DNA from: an uncultured Gemmatimonadales bacterium
GTDB taxonomy: Bacteria; Gemmatimonadota; Gemmatimonadetes; Longimicrobiales; RSA9
Reading direction: 5' to 3'
NCBI GenBank assembly: GCA_963798845.1
Contig: CAWCUS010000001.1
Coordinates: 352,001-416,000, forward strand
Length of the DNA stretch: 64,000 bases
Below, piece by piece: positions 32,504 through 41,933 of the stretch (position 1 is its first letter; each line of letters begins with the position of its first letter). The translations under genes and the position numbers were made by a program. Below the pieces are notes generated by a model, which did not search any database, was not told where the DNA came from, and saw only the letters and a list, made by a program, of their open reading frames with translations.

Positions 32504-33640
32504 TTATCGGCGCCGCGAGGCCTCCAGCGCCGCCAGCACCAGGGCGTCGGGCAGCGCGTGCGTCCACTCTCCCGCACCGCCGCGCGCCGGCTCACCGGGG
32601 CGCGCCACGAGCGCGTAACGGATGGCGCCGGCCCTCGCCTTCTTGTCCGATCTCGCCGCCTTCAGCACCTTTTTCGGTTCCATCCGATCGGGCACGGCCG
32701 TGGGGAGCCCGAACGCGGCCAGCGCCTCGGCGATGCGGGCGCTCGTGCCCGCGGCCGTCACACCCTCACGCTCTCCGGCCGCCGCCTCCACCACCATCCC
32801 GATGGCCACGGCGTCCCCGTGCGAGAGCCCGTAGCCGGAGACCCGCTCCAGCGCGTGCCCCACGGTGTGGCCGAAATTCAGCACCGCGCGCTCCCCCGCT
32901 TCCAGCACGTCCCGGGCGACCACGCCCGTCTTGATCCGGACCGAGCCCGCTACCAGCGCGGCCAGCGCCCGATCGTCTCGCCGGAAGATGGCATCCGCGT
33001 CGGCCACCAGGCGATCGAGGTAGTCGACGTCGGCGATGGCGCCGTGCTTGACGGCCTCGGCGAGGCCGGCGCGCAGCTCGCTGTCCGGCAGCGTGCTCAG
33101 GAAGCGCGGGTCCACCACCACCAGGCGCGGCTGGTGGAACGCGCCGACCAGGTTCTTTCCGGCGCTCAGGTCGAGCCCCGTCTTCCCGCCGATGGAGGCG
33201 TCCACCATGGCCAGGAGCGTGGTCGGCACCTGGACGAAGGCGACTCCCCGGCCGAACGTCGCGGCGGCGAAGCCCGCCACGTCGCCGGTCACGCCCCCGC
33301 CCAGCGCGACAATGCAACCATCGCGGCCGAGGCCGAGGTCGCCCAGCGCCTCCACCAGCGCCGCCCATCGCCCAGGCGTCTTGTGCGCCTCGCCCGCACG
33401 GAGCCGCACCGCCTCGACGGCGTGCCCGGCCTCCCGAAGACGCGACAGGACGCGCTCGCCATGGAGGTCGGCGACGATGTCGTCGCAGACCAGGACGTAC
33501 TGCTGCGCCGGGACGTGGCGGCGCACCACCTCGCCCAGCCGGTCGGCGACGCCCGCGCCGATGATGATCTCGCACCGCTCCGGCGGGCGGGGCAGCACCA
33601 GCGACACCAGCGCTTCGCCGCCGGCGGTCTCCTCGATCAC
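32504..33640 (-). CDS. aroB: 3-dehydroquinate synthase
   Basis: LGGGVTGDVAGF, PTTLLAMVDASIGGKTG, KNLVGAFHQP, LNFGHTVGHALE. Confidence 0.95.
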   Translation of the reverse strand: MIEETAGGEALVSLVLPRPPERCEIIIGAGVADRLGEVVRRHVPAQQYVLVCDDIVADLHGERVLSRLREAGHAVEAVRLRAGEAHKTPGRWAALVEALGDLGLGRDGCIVALGGGVTGDVAGFAAATFGRGVAFVQVPTTLLAMVDASIGGKTGLDLSAGKNLVGAFHQPRLVVVDPRFLSTLPDSELRAGLAEAVKHGAIADVDYLDRLVADADAIFRRDDRALAALVAGSVRIKTGVVARDVLEAGERAVLNFGHTVGHALERVSGYGLSHGDAVAIGMVVEAAAGEREGVTAAGTSARIAEALAAFGLPTAVPDRMEPKKVLKAARSDKKARAGAIRYALVARPGEPARGGAGEWTHALPDALVLAALEASRRR

Positions 33641-34779
33641 TCCGCCCGCTGCTTCCGCCGACGGTCGAAGCCCGTCCCCAGCAGCGTCTCCCGAACCAGC
33701 CACGCCATCACCTCCTCGAAGGACCCCGTCTCCGCGTGCACGCGACGCAGACGATCCGCGCCGTTGCCCCGCTCCAGCATCGTCTCCACCCGCTCCAGCA
33801 CCCCCAGATCCCCCACCGCCGACGCCAGCTGCGCCGCGCCGTCGAGGATCCGCCGTATCGCCGGTCGCACGCCCGTCTTCCCGCTCGGGGTCTCCGGGTC
33901 CGTGAGCGCGCCGTCCAGCCCGAACCTCGCCGCGTGCCACTCGTTCTCGGTCAGGACCTCGCGCCAGACGTCCGGGCTCAGCCCCCCGGAGCCGGGCGCC
34001 TCGAGCTCCCCTTCCGCCACGCCCATGACCACGAGCCTCGCCAGCGCGGCGATCGTGGCGGCGTCTTCGAGCCGCGGGCAGACGTCCATCGCCCGGAACT
34101 CCAGCGTCGGATAGGAGAAGTGGGGACGCAGGCTCCAGTACACGTTGCCCCGGTCCTGGATCGCTTCGCTCCGCAGCAGAAGGCTGATGAACCTGCGGTA
34201 CTCCTCGTCACTTTCGAAGCGCGGCGGCACGCCGGTGTAGGGGTACTGCCGCCACAGGATCGAACGGTACGATGCGAACCCGGTGTCCTCCGCGTCCAGG
34301 AACGGTGAGCTGGCGGAGAGCGCCACCAGGTGCGGGATGAAGCCGCGAACCTGCTCCATCAGCATCGTCCGGTCGATGCGGTCCGGCACGCCCACGTGCA
34401 CGTGCATGCCGAAGATGTTGACCTCCCGGGCGATCCGGTCATGGCGCTCGACGATGGCCCGGTAGCGCTCGTCCGGGTGGATCCCCGCGCCTTCCCACGC
34501 GCTGAACGGGTGCAGCCCCGCCGCCGCGATGTCCACCCCCTCCGCCGCGGCCGTCGTGGCCGCCTGGAAGCGCTGGCGACGGAGCTCTCCCTCCACCTCC
34601 TCCACCGTCCCGCACACCGGCGTGCCGATCTCCACGGTGGTCTCGTGCAGCTCACCGCGCAGCTCGTTCGCCCAGTCCGTGGCCAGCACGTCGGACGCGC
34701 GGCTGCGCAGCGCACCCGTGTCGGGGTCCACCAGCTGGTACTCCTCCTCCACGCCCATCGTGTATTCGTGGTTGGCCAT
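33637..34779 (-). CDS. ybdK: YbdK-family carboxylate-amine ligase (GCS2)
   Basis: TMGVEEEYQLVD, GLHPF, GMHVHVG, SASSPF, WSLRP..TLEFR.MD. Confidence 0.9.
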   Translation of the reverse strand: MANHEYTMGVEEEYQLVDPDTGALRSRASDVLATDWANELRGELHETTVEIGTPVCGTVEEVEGELRRQRFQAATTAAAEGVDIAAAGLHPFSAWEGAGIHPDERYRAIVERHDRIAREVNIFGMHVHVGVPDRIDRTMLMEQVRGFIPHLVALSASSPFLDAEDTGFASYRSILWRQYPYTGVPPRFESDEEYRRFISLLLRSEAIQDRGNVYWSLRPHFSYPTLEFRAMDVCPRLEDAATIAALARLVVMGVAEGELEAPGSGGLSPDVWREVLTENEWHAARFGLDGALTDPETPSGKTGVRPAIRRILDGAAQLASAVGDLGVLERVETMLERGNGADRLRRVHAETGSFEEVMAWLVRETLLGTGFDRRRKQRAE

Positions 34780-34835
34780 GCTTCTCGGGGCTCACCGTGT
34801 CGGGTGCCGCAGGGTACGGCTCTGAGGGTTTCGGT

Positions 34836-34851
34836 GGCAAATGCGGGGCCC
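34836..34851 (-). promoter_or_regulatory. Possible sigma-54 promoter of ybdK-aroB
   Basis: Minus strand GGGCCCCGCATTTGCC: GG..TTGC at correct spacing. Confidence 0.4.
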
Positions 34852-34929
34852 GGAGAAACAGCGAGGCGCGCGCTCCACACACGAGCCTCTTCCATTCCGA
34901 AATCGCTTCATTATATTCTCTTCCCGACG

Positions 34930-35010
34930 GAGCACAGGTGCTCAAACGGGGCGCTCCGGCCATATGACGGAACGGCTAACAACCGCGTCTCTTTGCAGGG
35001 GCGCTTTTTT
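34930..35010 (+). ncRNA. Candidate cis-regulatory RNA (riboswitch-like) with antiterminator/terminator
   Basis: GGGGCGC 34948-54 can pair with GCGUCUC 34985-91; inner UCCG/CGGA stem with GCC/GGC pseudoknot; competing terminator 34985-35010. Confidence 0.6.
34985..35010 (+). terminator. Intrinsic terminator in the leader of the ATP-grasp/KamA operon
   Basis: GCGUCUCU-UUGC-AGGGGCGC followed by U6, 20 nt before ATG 35031. Confidence 0.75.
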
Positions 35011-35030
35011 CATGGGGTACGAACGAACCG

Positions 35031-36065
35031 ATGCCGCTGAATATCGGGCTCGCGTACAATCAGAAGCCTGACCCGGAGGACGAGCCTCCCGGTACCAGGC
35101 GTCCCCTCGACGACCGATTCGCCGAGTGGGACGACCCCTCGACAATCGCGGCCGTCGAGGCTGCGCTCGCCGAAGCCGGCGATGTGATCCGGCTCGAAGC
35201 CGATGAGGACTTCCCCGCCCGCCTCCGGGCGACCCGGCCCGACATCGTCTTCAACATCGCGGAGGGGCTGAACGGCCCCAACCGGGAAGCGCACGTCCCG
35301 GCCATCTGCGAGTTCTTCGGCATTCCCTACACCGGCAGCGACCCCCTCGCCCTGGCGCTCAGCCTGGACAAGCGGCGGGCCAAGGACGTGTTCCGTGCCG
35401 CCGGGGTCCCGACGCCCGCGGGCGTGTCGGTGTCGCGGCCGGAAGAGCGGCAGCTGGCGCTGCACGTGCCGATCCCGGCCATGGTGAAGCCGCTCTTCGA
35501 GGGCTCCAGCAAGGGCATCCCCGAGAGCGCGCTGTGCGAGAGTCCGGACGACGTGCTGGCACGCGTGGACGCCGTCCTGGAGGAGTACGGCCAGCCGGCG
35601 CTCGTGGAGACCTTCCTCCCCGGCCGGGAGTTCACGTGCGCCGTGCTGGGCAACGGTGACGGCGCGCGGGCGCTCCCGCTGGTGGAGATCCGGTTCGACG
35701 CGCTGCCGGCGGGCGCGAAGCCGATTTACGGCTACGAGGCGAAGTGGGTCTGGGACACGCCCGACCGGCCGCTCTCCATTTTCAGCTGCCCCGCGGCGGT
35801 GGATGGGGCGCTGGGGTCGCTGATCGAGGGCACTGCGGTCGCCGCGTTCACCGCGCTCGGCTGCCGCGACTGGGCCCGGGTCGACCTCCGCCTCGACGAC
35901 GCCGGGCTCCCCCACGTGCTGGAGATCAATCCGCTCCCCGGCGTCCTGCCGGATCCGGAGCAGAATTCCTGCTACCCCAAGGCGGCACGGGCGGCCGGAA
36001 TGGACTACGGCCAGATGATCCGGGCCGTGCTCGATGCTGGGCTGAACAGGTACGGCCTGCGATGA
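35031..36065 (+). CDS. D-Ala-D-Ala ligase-like ATP-grasp enzyme 1
   Basis: VFNIAEG, PYTGSD, LDK, VKPLFEGSSKGI, GREF, YEAKW, RVDLR, LEINPLPG; lacks the canonical Ddl GGxSxE N-terminus. Confidence 0.9.
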   Translation: MPLNIGLAYNQKPDPEDEPPGTRRPLDDRFAEWDDPSTIAAVEAALAEAGDVIRLEADEDFPARLRATRPDIVFNIAEGLNGPNREAHVPAICEFFGIPYTGSDPLALALSLDKRRAKDVFRAAGVPTPAGVSVSRPEERQLALHVPIPAMVKPLFEGSSKGIPESALCESPDDVLARVDAVLEEYGQPALVETFLPGREFTCAVLGNGDGARALPLVEIRFDALPAGAKPIYGYEAKWVWDTPDRPLSIFSCPAAVDGALGSLIEGTAVAAFTALGCRDWARVDLRLDDAGLPHVLEINPLPGVLPDPEQNSCYPKAARAAGMDYGQMIRAVLDAGLNRYGLR

Positions 36066-37099
36066 GGATCGCCGTCGCCTACGACCGCGCCGCCGACGCC
36101 CGCGAGGGCGACGCCCCGCACTCCGGCCGTGACGACGCGGCCGTCCGGGACCGCCCCGCTTCCTCCCCCGCCCCCGCGCTCCCGGAGCGATCCGCCGCCG
36201 CGCCCGATGTGGCCGGGGTGCGCGAGGCGGTGGACGCCGTGGTCGAGAGCCTGGGGCGCCTCGGCCACGCCGCGTTCCCCGTCGCAGTGCACGCGCCGCT
36301 GGAGCGGTTCCTCACCCGATTGAGAGGCGTGGAGCTGGTCTTCAACCTCGCCGAGGGGCTCGACGGACGGGCGGAGGACGAGCCGCGCCTCGCCGCCCTC
36401 ATGGAGCTCTCCGGGCACCCCGTCACCGGCGCGTCCTCGGACACGCTGGCGCTGTGCCGGCGCAAGGACCGGGTCAACACCCTGGCCGCCAGCCGCGGGC
36501 TGGCCGTTCCGCCCTGGGCGGTGGCCCGGCCAGGCCGGCCCGGATGCCCGCTCCCCGGCTGGACGATCTTCCCGGCCATCGTCAAGCCGGTGGACGAGGA
36601 CGGGTCCGTCGGCATCCACGGGGACTCCGTGGTGGAGGACGCGCTCGAGCTCACCGCCTCGCTCGAGCGCGCGGACGGCGAGGTCCTCGTCCAGGCCTTC
36701 GTCGCCGGTCGCGAGTTCAACGTCGGCTTCGTCGGTGAAGAGGCCCTGCCGCTGGCGGAGATCGTGTTCGCCGGAACGCAGCGGGTGGTGAGCTACGCTG
36801 CCAAGTGGGCACCGGGCTCGGCCGACGACCTGTCGACCCTCCCCGTCTGCCCCGCCCGCGTCACCGCCACGTTCCACGACGACGCCGTGGCGCTCGCCCG
36901 TGAGGCCTGGGGCGCCGTGGGCGGACACGGGTACGGCCGCGTGGACCTCCGCACGAACGCAGATGGTCGGCTGAACCTGCTGGACGTCAACCCGAACCCC
37001 GACCTGGCTCCCTCCGCCGGGCTGGCGCGCATGGCGCGCGTGGCCGGCTGGGGCTTCGACGATCTGGTGGCACGGATCGTGGAGGAAGCGGTCGCATGA
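36062..37099 (+). CDS. D-Ala-D-Ala ligase-like ATP-grasp enzyme 2
   Basis: VFNLAEG, IVKPVDEDGSVGI, GREFNV, YAAKW, GYGRVDLR, DVNPNP; ATGA overlap. Confidence 0.88.
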   Translation: MRIAVAYDRAADAREGDAPHSGRDDAAVRDRPASSPAPALPERSAAAPDVAGVREAVDAVVESLGRLGHAAFPVAVHAPLERFLTRLRGVELVFNLAEGLDGRAEDEPRLAALMELSGHPVTGASSDTLALCRRKDRVNTLAASRGLAVPPWAVARPGRPGCPLPGWTIFPAIVKPVDEDGSVGIHGDSVVEDALELTASLERADGEVLVQAFVAGREFNVGFVGEEALPLAEIVFAGTQRVVSYAAKWAPGSADDLSTLPVCPARVTATFHDDAVALAREAWGAVGGHGYGRVDLRTNADGRLNLLDVNPNPDLAPSAGLARMARVAGWGFDDLVARIVEEAVA

Positions 37100-37608
37100 C
37101 TATCAAAACCCTTCAAAACGAGATGGCGACCGTGTTGCGGGCGCTGGAGCCGGGAGACCGGCCGGCGCTCGAGCGGCTGGTCCGATCCGTGGAGCTGTTC
37201 AGCGCCGCGGAGAAGGACGTGGCGATGGAAGTGCTGGACGGATACATGGAGCACCCCGGGAAGGACTACCACGCGCTGGGCGCCTTCACCCACAGTGGCG
37301 ACCTCCTGGGCTACGCGTGCTACGGCCCCACGCCGTGCACCGAGGGCACCTGGGACCTCTACTGGATCGCCGTGTCCGGGGAGTCCCGGGGCCGAGGCAT
37401 CGGAACCCTGCTGATGGAGGAGATTGAACGAAGGCTCGTCGAACAACACGCTCGACTCGTGCTCATCGAGACCGCCTCGCGCGCCGACTACGCCCCTACC
37501 CGGGCGTTCTACGAGCGGCGCGACTACCAGGTGGTCGCACGGGTCCCGGATTTCTATGCGCCGGGCGACGATCGCGTGATCTTCGCCCGCACCTTCCCCA
37601 GCGTTTGA
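37096..37608 (+). CDS. GNAT N-acetyltransferase
   Basis: DLYWIAV..RGRGIGTLLM acetyl-CoA motif A; TRAFYERRDY. Confidence 0.92.
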   Translation: MTIKTLQNEMATVLRALEPGDRPALERLVRSVELFSAAEKDVAMEVLDGYMEHPGKDYHALGAFTHSGDLLGYACYGPTPCTEGTWDLYWIAVSGESRGRGIGTLLMEEIERRLVEQHARLVLIETASRADYAPTRAFYERRDYQVVARVPDFYAPGDDRVIFARTFPSV

Positions 37609-37622
37609 CCGACGAGAGAGAA

Positions 37623-39092
37623 ATGTCCAACTGGCAAGAGACCCTGAGGCAGAGCGTCACGACGGTAGACGATCTGATCGACCGCTTCGGTGCCGAGAAC
37701 GTGGACCGTGAAGCGGTCGAGAAGGCCATCGAGAAGTTCAACCTTCGCATCACCCCGGCCGCGCTTGCGCAGATCAAGGCGCCGGGCGACTGGGCATGGA
37801 ACCAGTACGTACCCACGGGCGCGGAGAACGAGGTCGTGGACGGGATCGTCGACTCGCTGGACGAAGACGCGGACTCGCCCGTCCCGAACATCACGCACCG
37901 CTACCCGGACCGCGTGCTGTTCCTGGTCTCGCCGGTGTGCTCCACCTACTGCCGGTTCTGCACGCGCCGACGGAAGGTGGGCGACCCGGAGAAGATCCCG
38001 CTGAACCAGTTCGACGCCGCGTTCGCATACCTGCGCGAGCATACGGAAGTGCGCGACGTGGTGCTCTCCGGCGGCGATCCGTTCATGCTGAGCGACCGGC
38101 GAATCGAGTACTTCCTCTCGACACTGCGCGCCATCCCGCACATCGAGATCATCCGAATCCACTCCCGGGTGCCCAACCACCTCCCCGAACGTGTCACGCC
38201 CGAGCTGGCGGACATGATCAGGAAGTACCACCCGGTGTACGTGAACGTGCACTTCAACCACCCGGACGAGCTCACGCCGGAGTCCATGAAGGCGCTCGGC
38301 CTGCTGGCAGACGCCGGCATCCCGCTCGGTTCCCAGAGCGTGCTGCTCAAGGGCGTGAACGACGACCCGGCGATCATGAAGCGGCTGATGCAGCGGCTCC
38401 TCGTCGCCCGCGTGAAGCCGTACTACATCTACCAGGCGGACGTGGTGGCCGGCGGCGAGCACTTCCGCACGTCCGTGCAGAAGGGGATCGAGATCATCCA
38501 GGCGATCCGCGGCTGGACTTCCGGGCTCGGCGTCCCGCACTACGTCATTGACGCCCCCGGCGGCGGCGGCAAGATCCCGATCCTGCCCGAGTACGTGCAG
38601 GCGGTCACCGACAGCGAGATCGTGCTCCGCAACTACGCGGGCGAGGAGTTCCGCTACCCGCTCCCGCAGGAGCCTGCGCGCGTCGGCAACGGGTGCGACA
38701 TCCCGAGCATCCCGAGCCGCATCGCCGCCCGCACCGCCCGCTCCGGCGGCGTCGCCGGCGCCGGCAAGAACGAGAACGGGCGGGCGCGGCACAAGAAGGC
38801 GGCGAGCGCCCAGGCCAACGCCAACCGCAGCGGCGGGGCCGCAGGCCGGTCCAGCCGCCCGTCCAATGGGAACGGCCGCAAAGCCGACCGCGCGATCGGC
38901 ACGTCCGGGCCGAGCAACGGCGGCGGAAATGGCGGACCGAGGATATCCTCTGACGGCGGCGCGGGCTCGAACGGCAACCGCCAGCCCAGGACGAACGGCA
39001 ACGGGCACCGGAACGGCCGCGGGAACGGCCACGCCGACCCGGCTCAGATCACCATCGAGACGCTGGGCGGCATCGTGCCGATGGACGTGTAG
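37623..39092 (+). CDS. kamA: KamA-family radical SAM/PLP aminomutase (lysine 2,3-aminomutase-like) with Gly/Asn-rich tail
   Basis: THRYPDRVL, CSTYCRFCTRRR, SGGDP, HFNHP, QSVLLKGVND, PYYIYQAD, YVIDAPGGGGK. Confidence 0.93.
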   Translation: MSNWQETLRQSVTTVDDLIDRFGAENVDREAVEKAIEKFNLRITPAALAQIKAPGDWAWNQYVPTGAENEVVDGIVDSLDEDADSPVPNITHRYPDRVLFLVSPVCSTYCRFCTRRRKVGDPEKIPLNQFDAAFAYLREHTEVRDVVLSGGDPFMLSDRRIEYFLSTLRAIPHIEIIRIHSRVPNHLPERVTPELADMIRKYHPVYVNVHFNHPDELTPESMKALGLLADAGIPLGSQSVLLKGVNDDPAIMKRLMQRLLVARVKPYYIYQADVVAGGEHFRTSVQKGIEIIQAIRGWTSGLGVPHYVIDAPGGGGKIPILPEYVQAVTDSEIVLRNYAGEEFRYPLPQEPARVGNGCDIPSIPSRIAARTARSGGVAGAGKNENGRARHKKAASAQANANRSGGAAGRSSRPSNGNGRKADRAIGTSGPSNGGGNGGPRISSDGGAGSNGNRQPRTNGNGHRNGRGNGHADPAQITIETLGGIVPMDV

Positions 39093-39561: not shown

Positions 39562-39890
39562 CAGGCGGGCTCCGCCTTCGAGGCCAGGCGGGCTCCGCCT
39601 TCCCGGCGCCAGGCGGCCTCGGCCTTCGAGGCCAGGCGGGCTCCGCCTTCCCGGCGCCAGGCGGCCTCGGCCTTCGAGGCCAGGCGGGCTCCGCCTTCGC
39701 GGCCAGGCGGGGTCGGCGTTCGAGGCCAGGCGGGCTCCGCCTTCGAGGCCAGGCGGCCTCGGCCTCTGCGGCCAGGCGGCCTCGGGGCTTCCGCGCCAGG
39801 CGGCCTCGACCTCCGCGGCCAGGCGGCCTCGGGGCTTCGGCGCCAGGCAGCCTCGGGGCTTCCGCGCCCGGCGGGCTCGGCCTTCCGCGC
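39562..39890. repeat. About 14 degenerate 23-25 bp tandem units CAGGCGG(GCTCCGCC/CCTCGGCC)TTCGAGGC
   Basis: Direct reading; ends at the stop codon of the convergent gene. Confidence 0.9.
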
Positions 39891-41320
39891 TAGGCGCCCT
39901 CGTCCAGTCTGATGAGCGCCGGGGCCAACACGGTCGCGGGGTCGCCGCCGGCCGGGGTTTCAACGACACGGACCACGGGGCGTCCCTTGACGGTCATGCG
40001 GTCCACGGTCCCGGCCCGCCCGGGGCGGGCGGCGAGGACGCGGCGGTAGTCGGTGGCGAAGCGGTCGGCGGAGGCGTCGTCGTCCCACACGGAGTACCAG
40101 ACCAGCGCCTGTCGGCCGTCGGGGCCGTCCAGGAGCGCGTAGCGGTCACCGTCCCAGCCGCGGGCGAAGTCGACGCCGGCCGCGCCCGGCCGAGCGCCCT
40201 CCCCATTCCGTGGGGCGCCGGCCGCGCCCGGCCGAGCGCCCTCCCCATTCCGCCGGGCGCCGGCCGCCCGGGGCGAACCGTCGGCGGCGGCCTCATCTCC
40301 GAGGTACTCGTCGAGGATGATGGACGTCTCGAGCTCGCCGAAATCGTTGGCGTAGGCCACGCTCCAGCCGTCGCCGGGAGCGCCCAGGTAGAGCGTGGTG
40401 GGCGCGTCGCGCGAGTCGATGAAGCGGTCCACGGGTCGCAGGACCTGCTCGGTGGACTGCGGAAGGAGGTCGCCGAAGGGGATGGGGATGTCGTCGCCCC
40501 GGCGGTGGCGAAAAAGCGCCTGCACGAACACGGCGCCGCCCATGTAGGGGAAGATGAGCGTCTCCCGGATGATGCGAGGGGCGCGCTGGAAGACGGGGTA
40601 GCGGTCGTTATGCCCCTCGATGGCCGGACGAAGGAGGCCGCGCATGTCAGGGAGGGTGCCCGGGTCGACGCGCTTGCCGGTTGCCCGCGCGGTCTGGAGG
40701 GCGGCCATGACCAGCGTCGCCTGCCCCTCGGCCGCGGCCTGCGCGGCCATCTGGCGGTCGTTGCCGCGCTCCCGCGACACCAGGGAGTCCAGGTCGGTGT
40801 ACTGGTCCTGGAGCGCGTGCACCAGCTCGTGGGCGACCACCGGCGCAGCGGAGTCCGCGGCCACCCCCGCCAGCACGTAGAGCCGGTCCGACTTGGGATC
40901 GTAGTAGCCCACCACCTGCTCGGCGTACAGCTCCAGCAGGAGCACGCGCAGGTCCATGGTGTCCGGGATCAGCCCGAGCGCGCGGTACACCCGCTCGGTC
41001 CCGCGCAGCTCCTCCGGGCCCATATCCTCGTCGAGCTGCGCGTCGATGAACGCCCGCGCGTCCGAGCGGGACTGGAGCGCGTACGCCACCGGGTGCTGCA
41101 CGGGCAGCCCGCTCGCCTTGGAGATCTCCGGGACCAGCGCGTCGATCATGGCCGCGAGCCCCGCCGAGTCCAGGGGCGCCCCCGGCGTCGAGCCCGCGCG
41201 GGCGACGCCGCCGCCCGCCTCCGAGCGCTGTCGGGCCGCCGCGCCGCCCCAGCTGTCGCAGGCGGCCTGGGACAGCGCGAGGGCCGCCACGGCGACGGCC
41301 GCGATGCTACGCCCCGTCAT
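39890..41320 (-). CDS. Putative lipoprotein zinc metallopeptidase (HExxH)
   Basis: Signal ending ALSQAAC; VVGYYDP, AHELVHALQDQ, AEGQAT, FPYMGG, GWDGDRY. Confidence 0.8.
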   Translation of the reverse strand: MTGRSIAAVAVAALALSQAACDSWGGAAARQRSEAGGGVARAGSTPGAPLDSAGLAAMIDALVPEISKASGLPVQHPVAYALQSRSDARAFIDAQLDEDMGPEELRGTERVYRALGLIPDTMDLRVLLLELYAEQVVGYYDPKSDRLYVLAGVAADSAAPVVAHELVHALQDQYTDLDSLVSRERGNDRQMAAQAAAEGQATLVMAALQTARATGKRVDPGTLPDMRGLLRPAIEGHNDRYPVFQRAPRIIRETLIFPYMGGAVFVQALFRHRRGDDIPIPFGDLLPQSTEQVLRPVDRFIDSRDAPTTLYLGAPGDGWSVAYANDFGELETSIILDEYLGDEAAADGSPRAAGARRNGEGARPGAAGAPRNGEGARPGAAGVDFARGWDGDRYALLDGPDGRQALVWYSVWDDDASADRFATDYRRVLAARPGRAGTVDRMTVKGRPVVRVVETPAGGDPATVLAPALIRLDEGA

Positions 41321-41933
41321 CCTGGGCCTCGCGACGCTGCAGCGCCTCGCCGTCGGGATCCTCCGGTCCCGGCAGCCCCTCGCCATCCTCGTCCTCCCGC
41401 CCCTGCAGCGCCTCGCCATCCTCGTGCTCCCGGCCCAGCAGCGCTTCGCCCCGCCCCAGCGCGCGCATCCCCGGCGTCGGCGACGCTGCGGGTTCCTCGC
41501 GCAGCGACCGTCCGGTGGCCGGGTCCAGCAACTCCGGATCCAGCTCGAGGAGCGGCACCAGCACGAAGGGCCGGTCTCGCATCCGGGGATGCGGGATCGT
41601 GAGCCCGGGGCGGTCGATCCGCCGGTCATCGTAGAGCAGGATGTCGACGTCGAGCGTGCGCGGGCCGTTGCGTACGGTCCGCTCGCGCCCGCGCTCTCGT
41701 TCCAGGCGGCGCGCCAGGACGAGCAGCGCGTCGGGCGCCAGGGCAGTGTCGACGCGGGCCACCATGTTCAGGAAGCGGGGCTGCTCCGTGTAGCCCACCG
41801 GCTCGGTCTCGTAAACGGTCGACATGCCGGTGAGCTCGACGTCGGGCTCGCGGGCGAGGGCGCGGAGTGCGTGAGCCAGGTGACGCTCGCGCTCGCCGAC
41901 GTTGGTGCCGAGGCCGAGCCAGGCGGTGGCCAC
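41307..41933 (-). CDS. folK: 2-amino-4-hydroxy-6-hydroxymethyldihydropteridine diphosphokinase
   Basis: LGLGTNVG, YETEPVG, FLN, GPRTLDVDIL, LTIPHPRM..RPFVLVPL. Confidence 0.95.
   Translation of the reverse strand: MATAWLGLGTNVGERERHLAHALRALAREPDVELTGMSTVYETEPVGYTEQPRFLNMVARVDTALAPDALLVLARRLERERGRERTVRNGPRTLDVDILLYDDRRIDRPGLTIPHPRMRDRPFVLVPLLELDPELLDPATGRSLREEPAASPTPGMRALGRGEALLGREHEDGEALQGREDEDGEGLPGPEDPDGEALQRREAQDDGA

Follow-up and report, generated by a model that had tools for sequence, protein, structure and literature searches.

The stretch of DNA analysed here, referred to as the window (64 kb, with a GC content of 71.8%), is placed among Longimicrobiales-type Gemmatimonadota by the names of the closest proteins and loci. 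On its plus strand, an operon of four overlapping genes encodes two Ddl-like ATP-grasp proteins, a GNAT acetyltransferase and a KamA-family protein. The first Ddl-like gene (35031-36065, 344 amino acids) matches the Pfam family Dala_Dala_lig_C (2.7e-29) and falls under all of the NCBIfam Ddl cut-offs; the second (36062-37099) has a start codon that overlaps the preceding stop codon (ATGA). The GNAT acetyltransferase gene (37096-37608) was assigned by a profile match. The last gene (37605-39092) encodes a radical-SAM aminomutase that passes the KamA-family subfamily model TIGR00238, and its top NCBIfam match, lys_2_3_AblA, scores 437 bits, below the cut-off of 525 bits. A GCS2/YbdK-type carboxylate-amine ligase gene (33637-34779) lies upstream on the minus strand, and the 251-nt spacer between this divergent gene and the operon contains the leader that is the subject of this analysis. 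An earlier, first-pass annotation made from the letters of the window had described the leader as a pseudoknotted, riboswitch-like RNA with an antiterminator/terminator switch.

The leader was compared with those of 80 loci, almost all of them titled Gemmatimonadota, in which a relative of the first gene is encoded; together with the window, this makes 81 leaders. The set does not extend to the DNA surrounding the approximately 50 most similar proteins (P0002-P0050, with identities of 74% or more). The window's own lineage consists of four sequences, namely the window and loci L001, L002 and L003, which have the closest leaders (79% protein identity) and of which the four-fold degenerate sites are saturated with respect to the window (0.51-0.52). 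According to tblastn, GNAT and KamA genes are found downstream of the two ligase genes in all 17 Longimicrobiales-type loci that have enough flanking sequence, and of the 38 other loci with enough flank, all have GNAT downstream and 29 have KamA, with some of these KamA matches having just 29-34% identity. The impression, gained from Pfam alone, that Gemmatimonadales loci are without GNAT and KamA was overturned by the same searches. In eight Gemmatimonadales loci (L029, L034, L042, L043, L053, L059, L070 and L080), the best KamA match has 29-34% identity and is located farther downstream, about 2.8-4.8 kb past the start of the first gene; it appears that a different radical-SAM protein has taken the place of the aminomutase in these loci, or has arisen from it by divergence. 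The GCS2 ligase gene is upstream in seven of 22 Longimicrobiales-type loci and in none of 44 others, and being present in so few it is therefore not tied to the leader. Upstream neighbours vary, from the divergent GCS2 gene of the window to thyX on the same strand in L043; therefore, the hairpin described below belongs to the Ddl-like/GNAT/KamA operon and not to the upstream gene.

Promoter-like boxes precede the terminator in both orders. The -10-like box of the window, TATATT (34912-34917, plus strand), is part of ATTATATTC, which is kept in L001 and L002, and the upstream box CTCTTCCATTCC (34887-34898, plus strand), a candidate -35 region or activator site, is identical in the same three sequences, so that all three have the arrangement CTCTTCCATTCC-N13-ATTATATTC. 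CTTCC-type boxes at the same distance from a TATA-like box were recognized by eye in L007, L012, L013, L015 and L018, and boxes of the type TATA(T/C)(T/A) occupy the same position in other Longimicrobiales-type leaders. A consensus scan called no sigma-70 promoter at the leader boxes. Given these boxes, transcription would be expected to start near 34924-34927. Leaders of the Gemmatimonadales type have a nearly invariant promoter-like pair instead, CTATTGTGC-N17-TACTTTAG, and TATTGT was present in 31 of the 31 that were examined. In L029-L080, the pair precedes the first Ddl-like gene by about 60-100 nt (at 3900-3960 in L043, for example), and its boxes resemble the -33/-7 promoter type of Bacteroidetes.

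The stem-loop GCGUCUCU-UUGC-AGGGGCGC (34985-35004, plus strand) has eight base pairs, including two G-U pairs, and a loop of four nucleotides, and is followed by a U6 tract (35005-35010) that is the sole plus-strand T6 in 64 kb. These are the marks of an intrinsic (Rho-independent) terminator, namely a GC-rich stem of 5 bp or more, a short loop and an adjoining U-run on the 3′ side. It is the sole terminator-like site found by a consensus scan of 34300-35500, and one of only four sites with a hairpin and U-run on either strand of the whole window. A terminator on the minus strand was ruled out because the homopolymer would precede the hairpin and the neighbouring gene is divergent.

A script that searched for a single hairpin of -7 kcal/mol or lower with an adjoining U-run, at most 130 nt upstream of a conserved N-terminal motif, found such an element just before the first Ddl-like gene in 53 of the 81 leaders; two of these positives (L010 and L024) are picks elsewhere in the sequence, and L024 has a proper hairpin by eye. 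Five of the 28 leaders that were missed had no match to the N-terminal motif, and one of the five, L008, has the element as judged both by eye and by covariance model. The hairpin is present with a degenerate U-run in L006 and L014, and inspection by eye indicates that several Gemmatimonadales lineages (L050, L060, L073 and others) have retained the hairpin without the U-run; a function of the hairpin other than termination is therefore conceivable.

A covariance model (CM R1) built from ten leaders matches the window terminator with 39.6 bits (E about 1e-9), and at E≤0.001 it places the element in 21 of 24 Longimicrobiales-type sources, at a constant position. When the stems of these 21 leaders were aligned by the model, a fit that in itself favours pairing, 93.5% of the cells were paired and seven of nine base pairs had double changes, which none of 500 shuffles equalled; slid controls of the same alignment gave 33-64% paired cells. 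The model-based alignment was used instead of a MAFFT alignment of the 35 distinct hairpins, in which the registers were misaligned and RNAalifold predicted no pairs. G-U pairs are used by 21 of the 35 distinct hairpins. The window stem folds with -10.0 kcal/mol on the plus strand versus -3.0 kcal/mol as its reverse complement, and across the 35 hairpins the plus strand is better in 20, equal in seven and worse in eight. The G-U pairs and the far weaker fold of the reverse complement therefore identify a plus-strand RNA feature, not a DNA palindrome. Altogether, the comparison of sequences establishes the predicted terminator as a real, covarying element of the plus strand that travels with the operon through Gemmatimonadota, as the first-pass annotation had anticipated when it placed a termination element in the 5′ leader of this ATP-grasp/GNAT/KamA operon.

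The two arms of the hairpin differ in composition: the 5′ arm has a higher pyrimidine content than the 3′ arm (0.70 vs 0.31) in 33 of the 35 distinct hairpins, which are phylogenetically related and do not represent 33 independent events. The pyrimidine-rich 5′ arm resembles an anti-Shine-Dalgarno sequence (CUCC), and the purine-rich 3′ arm resembles a Shine-Dalgarno sequence (GGAG). The core CGUCUC/GAGACG survives between orders, even where silent (four-fold) sites are saturated, and takes the form GGC-U-CGUCUC...GACGGCC with a bulged U in Gemmatimonadales. Sequence that is conserved between orders is limited to this hairpin core, the U-run and the ribosome-binding site. In some leaders (L032, L037 and L051; L050, L060 and L073; L064, L071, L072, L074, L076 and L077), a longer helix, either ACCGCG...CGCGGU or CACGUCG...CGACGUG, was seen by eye to enclose the hairpin, and the U-run is missing in several of them; this suggests that these lineages have put the hairpin to use within another kind of leader structure.

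Downstream of the U-run, a Shine-Dalgarno-like GGGG (35014-35017, plus strand) is located 13 nt before the ATG of the operon and corresponds to the conserved sequence YRUAGGGGU or GUAGAGGG that follows the U-run at once, and precedes the start codon, in relatives. Gemmatimonadales-type loci have GAGGG 6-7 nt before a TTG start. Because the U-run directly abuts the ribosome-binding site, there is no room for another promoter. An AUG right after the U-run opens a small orf of 19 codons in the window (35012-35071, plus strand), which overlaps the operon start codon out of frame. Such an AUG (CAUGG in place of CAUAGG) occurs in only six leaders and is therefore not the start of a conserved leader peptide, and the reading frames that end at the conserved UAG were without a consistently placed start codon. 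In L009 (3975-4004), L011 (3975-4004) and L020 (3981-4004), the corresponding orf has 7-9 codons and a UGA overlapping the main AUG; in L024 (3985-4044) it has 19 codons and overlaps the main start out of frame as in the window, and in L003 the AUG after the U-run (3980) shares the frame of the main orf. These AUGs have the purine-rich 3′ terminator arm 10-11 nt upstream, a placing like that of a Shine-Dalgarno sequence.

Between the promoter boxes and the terminator, the window leader contains a region designated P1 (34929-34957, plus strand) in which GGAGC (34929-34933) can pair with GCUCC (34953-34957). The smaller hairpin drawn in the first-pass annotation, 34930-34934 with 34939-34943, is an alternative within this region. 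On the alignment of the four sequences, GGAGC/GCUCC aligns with hairpins of L001 and L002 and 14 of 15 cells are paired; double changes are seen in three of the five pairs, a result equalled by 28 of 500 shuffles. L003 is misaligned at P1, yet has a hairpin of its own. A reading of P1 and the terminator stem as a DNA operator was rejected because the arms covary and use G-U pairs. Directly 3′ of P1 is the sequence GGCCATATGA (34958-34967, plus strand), an instance of the single-stranded-looking motif GGCCAUAKGA, which is invariant in all four sequences and at the same position of the leader despite the saturation of silent sites. P1 and GGCCAUAKGA are confined to the window and L001-L003 and are absent from other lineages; the only other matches to GGCCATAKG are on the minus strands of L020 and L050, far from the leader. 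Searches of the window for additional copies gave five one-mismatch matches to GGCCATAKGA versus 3.86 expected, and no match to the U-run/Shine-Dalgarno pattern, of which the window's own copy carries two mismatches. Within this small lineage, P1 and GGCCAUAKGA could serve locally as the sensor or as a binding site.

Other lineages have other sequences in this part of the leader. The k-mers shared by 20 Longimicrobiales-type leaders amount to GC-rich background and promoter boxes, and the enrichment of individual k-mers over shuffled sequences is mild and confounded by relatedness (GACA, 13 vs 4.9; GGCCA, 8 vs 1.6). In the Gemmatimonadales type, the promoter boxes and the terminator are separated by only about 27 variable nucleotides, and about 25-30 nt precede the terminator in the group as a whole; L012 has promoter boxes of the window type, yet it too has a short leader, with about 25-30 nt before the terminator. 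RNAalifold predicted the terminator only when applied to 29 Gemmatimonadales-type leaders. No aptamer with a conserved core and covarying helices was found across the 20 Longimicrobiales-type or 31 Gemmatimonadales-type leaders. Conservation among homologous leaders extends to the hairpin and U-run, and not to an aptamer-like core common to different lineages.

The sequences from which a metabolite-sensing riboswitch was proposed are all in place in the window leader: besides TATATT, there are GAGCAC/GTGCTC (34930-34943), GGGGCGC (34948-34954), UCCG (34955-34958) facing CGGA (34968-34971), GCC (34959-34961) facing GGC (34974-34976), and GCGUCUCU-UUGC-AGGGGCGC-U6 (34985-35010), and GGGGCGCU does occur twice. 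The RNA that begins at 34926 and is truncated at the terminator loop adopts the proposed antiterminator, in which GGGGCGC (34948-34954, plus strand) pairs with GCGUCUC (34985-34991), together with the UCCG/CGGA hairpin, at a minimum free energy of -20.1 kcal/mol. A riboswitch might consist of an aptamer specific to the lineage (P1, GGCCAUAKGA and the region up to the terminator) or of a tiny aptamer embedded in the terminator, with a ligand choosing between terminator and antiterminator. Its expression platform, the terminator, is real; P1 covaries; GGCCAUAKGA is invariant in the four leaders at a distance where silent sites are saturated; and there is no leader peptide. Conservation of the hairpin core at saturating divergence is also what would be expected of an aptamer embedded in a terminator, for which the HMP-PP riboswitch is a precedent.

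The antiterminator, however, is at the level of chance. When the 59 nt upstream were subjected to 2000 dinucleotide shuffles, 438 of these contained a 7-bp complement to the 5′ arm of the terminator, and in 51 distinct leaders the fraction of 5′-arm bases that pair upstream in the truncated fold is 0.533, versus 0.531 in shuffled sequences. The upstream copy of GGGGCGC is inside a 13-nt insertion specific to the window, and is missing from the closest leaders, L001-L003. When 70 nt of upstream sequence were included, only two of the eight arm bases paired upstream. The favoured fold of the full leader pairs the two copies of GGGGCGC with each other (-30.8 kcal/mol), the terminator fold having -27.7 kcal/mol and the antiterminator fold -23.1 kcal/mol; the whole leader folds with z = -2.06, and eight of 200 shuffles fold equally well. 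The pseudoknotted aptamer fares no better, as helices of 4 bp and 3 bp are trivial at 72% GC: on the four-sequence alignment, 83% of the cells of the four proposed helices are paired and 43 of 500 shuffles reach that value, and the inner helix and pseudoknot clash with P1 in L001-L003. The inner helix of L001 would consist of three consecutive G-U pairs using bases of the P1 3′ arm. The riboswitch fold thus does not exceed what chance would give, and relatives have not retained it; the case shows that one GC-rich sequence can by chance offer what looks like a riboswitch switch. Together with the putative aptamer being carried by only four sequences, the lack of any k-mer beyond GC-rich background common to the 20 Longimicrobiales-type leaders, the terminator-only prediction for the Gemmatimonadales type and the shortness of the leader both there and in L012, these results make a metabolite-sensing riboswitch unlikely.

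Database searches point in the same direction. As the first-pass annotation had supposed, the leader belongs to no known Rfam class: cmscan with Rfam 15 at gathering thresholds gave no matches in the whole window, and none of the families covered, including lysine, ydaO/c-di-AMP, preQ1, guanidine I-IV, nadA, thiS, nhaA-I and DUF1646, reached its threshold. A permissive search of 34780-35060 and of L001, L003 and L043 gave unrelated matches only, of 8-14 bits (E 0.8-8), and no described motif for this operon or phylum was found in the literature. The ligands suggested for the switch (lysine or beta-lysine, a polyamine, a SAM-related metabolite or an ion) followed from the gene context, which holds across the phylum. 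According to PMC5737381, kamA and lysine metabolism are known riboswitch targets tied to osmotic stress, and c-di-AMP (ydaO) and lysine riboswitches are found upstream of kamA. The gene context is alike for these two riboswitches. They are, however, large, well-defined aptamers, and cmscan finds neither of them here with gathering or permissive settings.

Very small or terminator-embedded riboswitches, namely HMP-PP/thiS, preQ1-I and guanidine-III, resemble the window leader in being short and in having conserved bases in the 5′ arm of the terminator, and an H-type pseudoknot is conceivable in the window leader; they differ from it in that their Rfam models do not match it even at E≤10, and no pocket-like core is common to the lineages. 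It is improbable that the phylum-wide hairpin core (CGUCUC/GAGACG) and the lineage-specific P1-GGCCAUAKGA constitute a new ligand sensor, a very small RNA built into its own terminator and controlling the Ddl-like/GNAT/KamA pathway. If true, a tiny RNA would control a conserved pathway of Gemmatimonadota that possibly makes a beta-amino-acid peptide or an osmolyte.

The best reading of the element is a new, putative leader attenuator that belongs to no Rfam family and of which the upstream part differs by lineage. We lean towards a transcription attenuator that would be governed by a trans-acting factor in preference to a metabolite aptamer, because the upstream part of the leader is short and differs from one lineage to the next, and because conservation between orders is confined to the core of the hairpin, the U-run and the ribosome-binding site. 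Transcription would start a few bases past the TATATT box and run through a leader of about 60 nt until the polymerase meets the intrinsic terminator (34985-35004 and U6), about 20 nt before the operon start codon. Since this terminator precedes the start codon and there is no further promoter, the operon would be expressed only by read-through. Termination is the presumed default state, and read-through would require that pairing of the pyrimidine-rich 5′ arm (core CGUCUC) be prevented. The candidate agent is an RNA-binding protein or a small RNA that recognizes the hairpin or its 5′ arm; such a factor is favoured because no upstream sequence was found to compete with the hairpin beyond the level of chance.

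Protein-dependent antitermination of the LicT/RAT, PyrR, TRAP and ANTAR types offers a model for this attenuator: in these systems, a conserved RNA segment overlaps the 5′ arm of the terminator and the rest of the leader is short. The window leader is alike in both respects. Unlike these systems, the window operon includes no RNA-binding regulator gene, and the leaders show neither a RAT-like nor a dual-hexaloop consensus and lack triplet repeats; GACA is only mildly over-represented (13 vs 4.9 expected) in sequences that are related. Among attenuators in general, according to Naville and Gautheret (2010; PMC2965389), the upstream sensor part is diverse and changes fast between lineages. The 'premature terminators' described there are similar to the present element in having a GC-rich hairpin and U-run between promoter and start codon, and also in the lineage-variable upstream part; the window leader differs in that neither a leader peptide nor an aptamer nor any known type of protein site could be assigned to it, and in being absent from Rfam 15. 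Gene regulation has hardly been studied in Gemmatimonadota, which are common in soil, and a phylum-wide four-gene operon that may be gated by a leader terminator absent from RNA-family libraries would offer a concrete way of testing how the pathway is regulated and to what it responds.

Another possibility, to which we assign a low probability, is that the terminator is a constitutive attenuator that stops a fixed fraction of transcripts and keeps operon expression low, or that the terminated transcript of about 85 nt is itself a small RNA derived from the 5′ UTR, with GGCCAUAKGA unpaired. The usual form of a bacterial small RNA is a promoter followed by a short RNA that ends in a hairpin and a long U-run, and the leader fits this form; the chance-level performance of all competitor structures and the variation of the leader 5′ parts by lineage are as would be expected. 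However, the position of the ribosome-binding site right after the U-run, with no room for a separate promoter, ties the element to expression of the operon, and P1 and GGCCAUAKGA are conserved without an identified target. It is highly improbable that the hairpin is not a terminator at all, and acts instead on translation or mRNA stability from its place next to the ribosome-binding site, or as an inverted-repeat DNA operator for a transcription factor: the retention of the hairpin and not the U-run in some lineages (by eye), the adjacency of the U-run to the Shine-Dalgarno-like GGGG, and the stems of group-B leaders, which are perfect DNA palindromes, would suit such a role, but the G-U pairs and the strand difference in folding energy argue for RNA, the stems covary instead of holding one sequence, and a U-run of 5-7 straight after a GC-rich stem in a genome of 72% GC is the hallmark of an intrinsic terminator.

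A covariance-model search of the window and the 80 loci for a second copy or a regulon gave no other leader-like match. The sole non-leader match below E 0.01, at 8027-8060 of L046, is an ordinary bidirectional terminator (A5-hairpin-U5) that ends the operon between convergent genes. In the window itself, a terminator-like hairpin followed by U5 (40516-40536, minus strand) is located inside a long orf (39890-41629, minus strand) that weakly matches the surface protein family Hvo_1808; this hairpin is due either to chance or to a mis-delimited orf.
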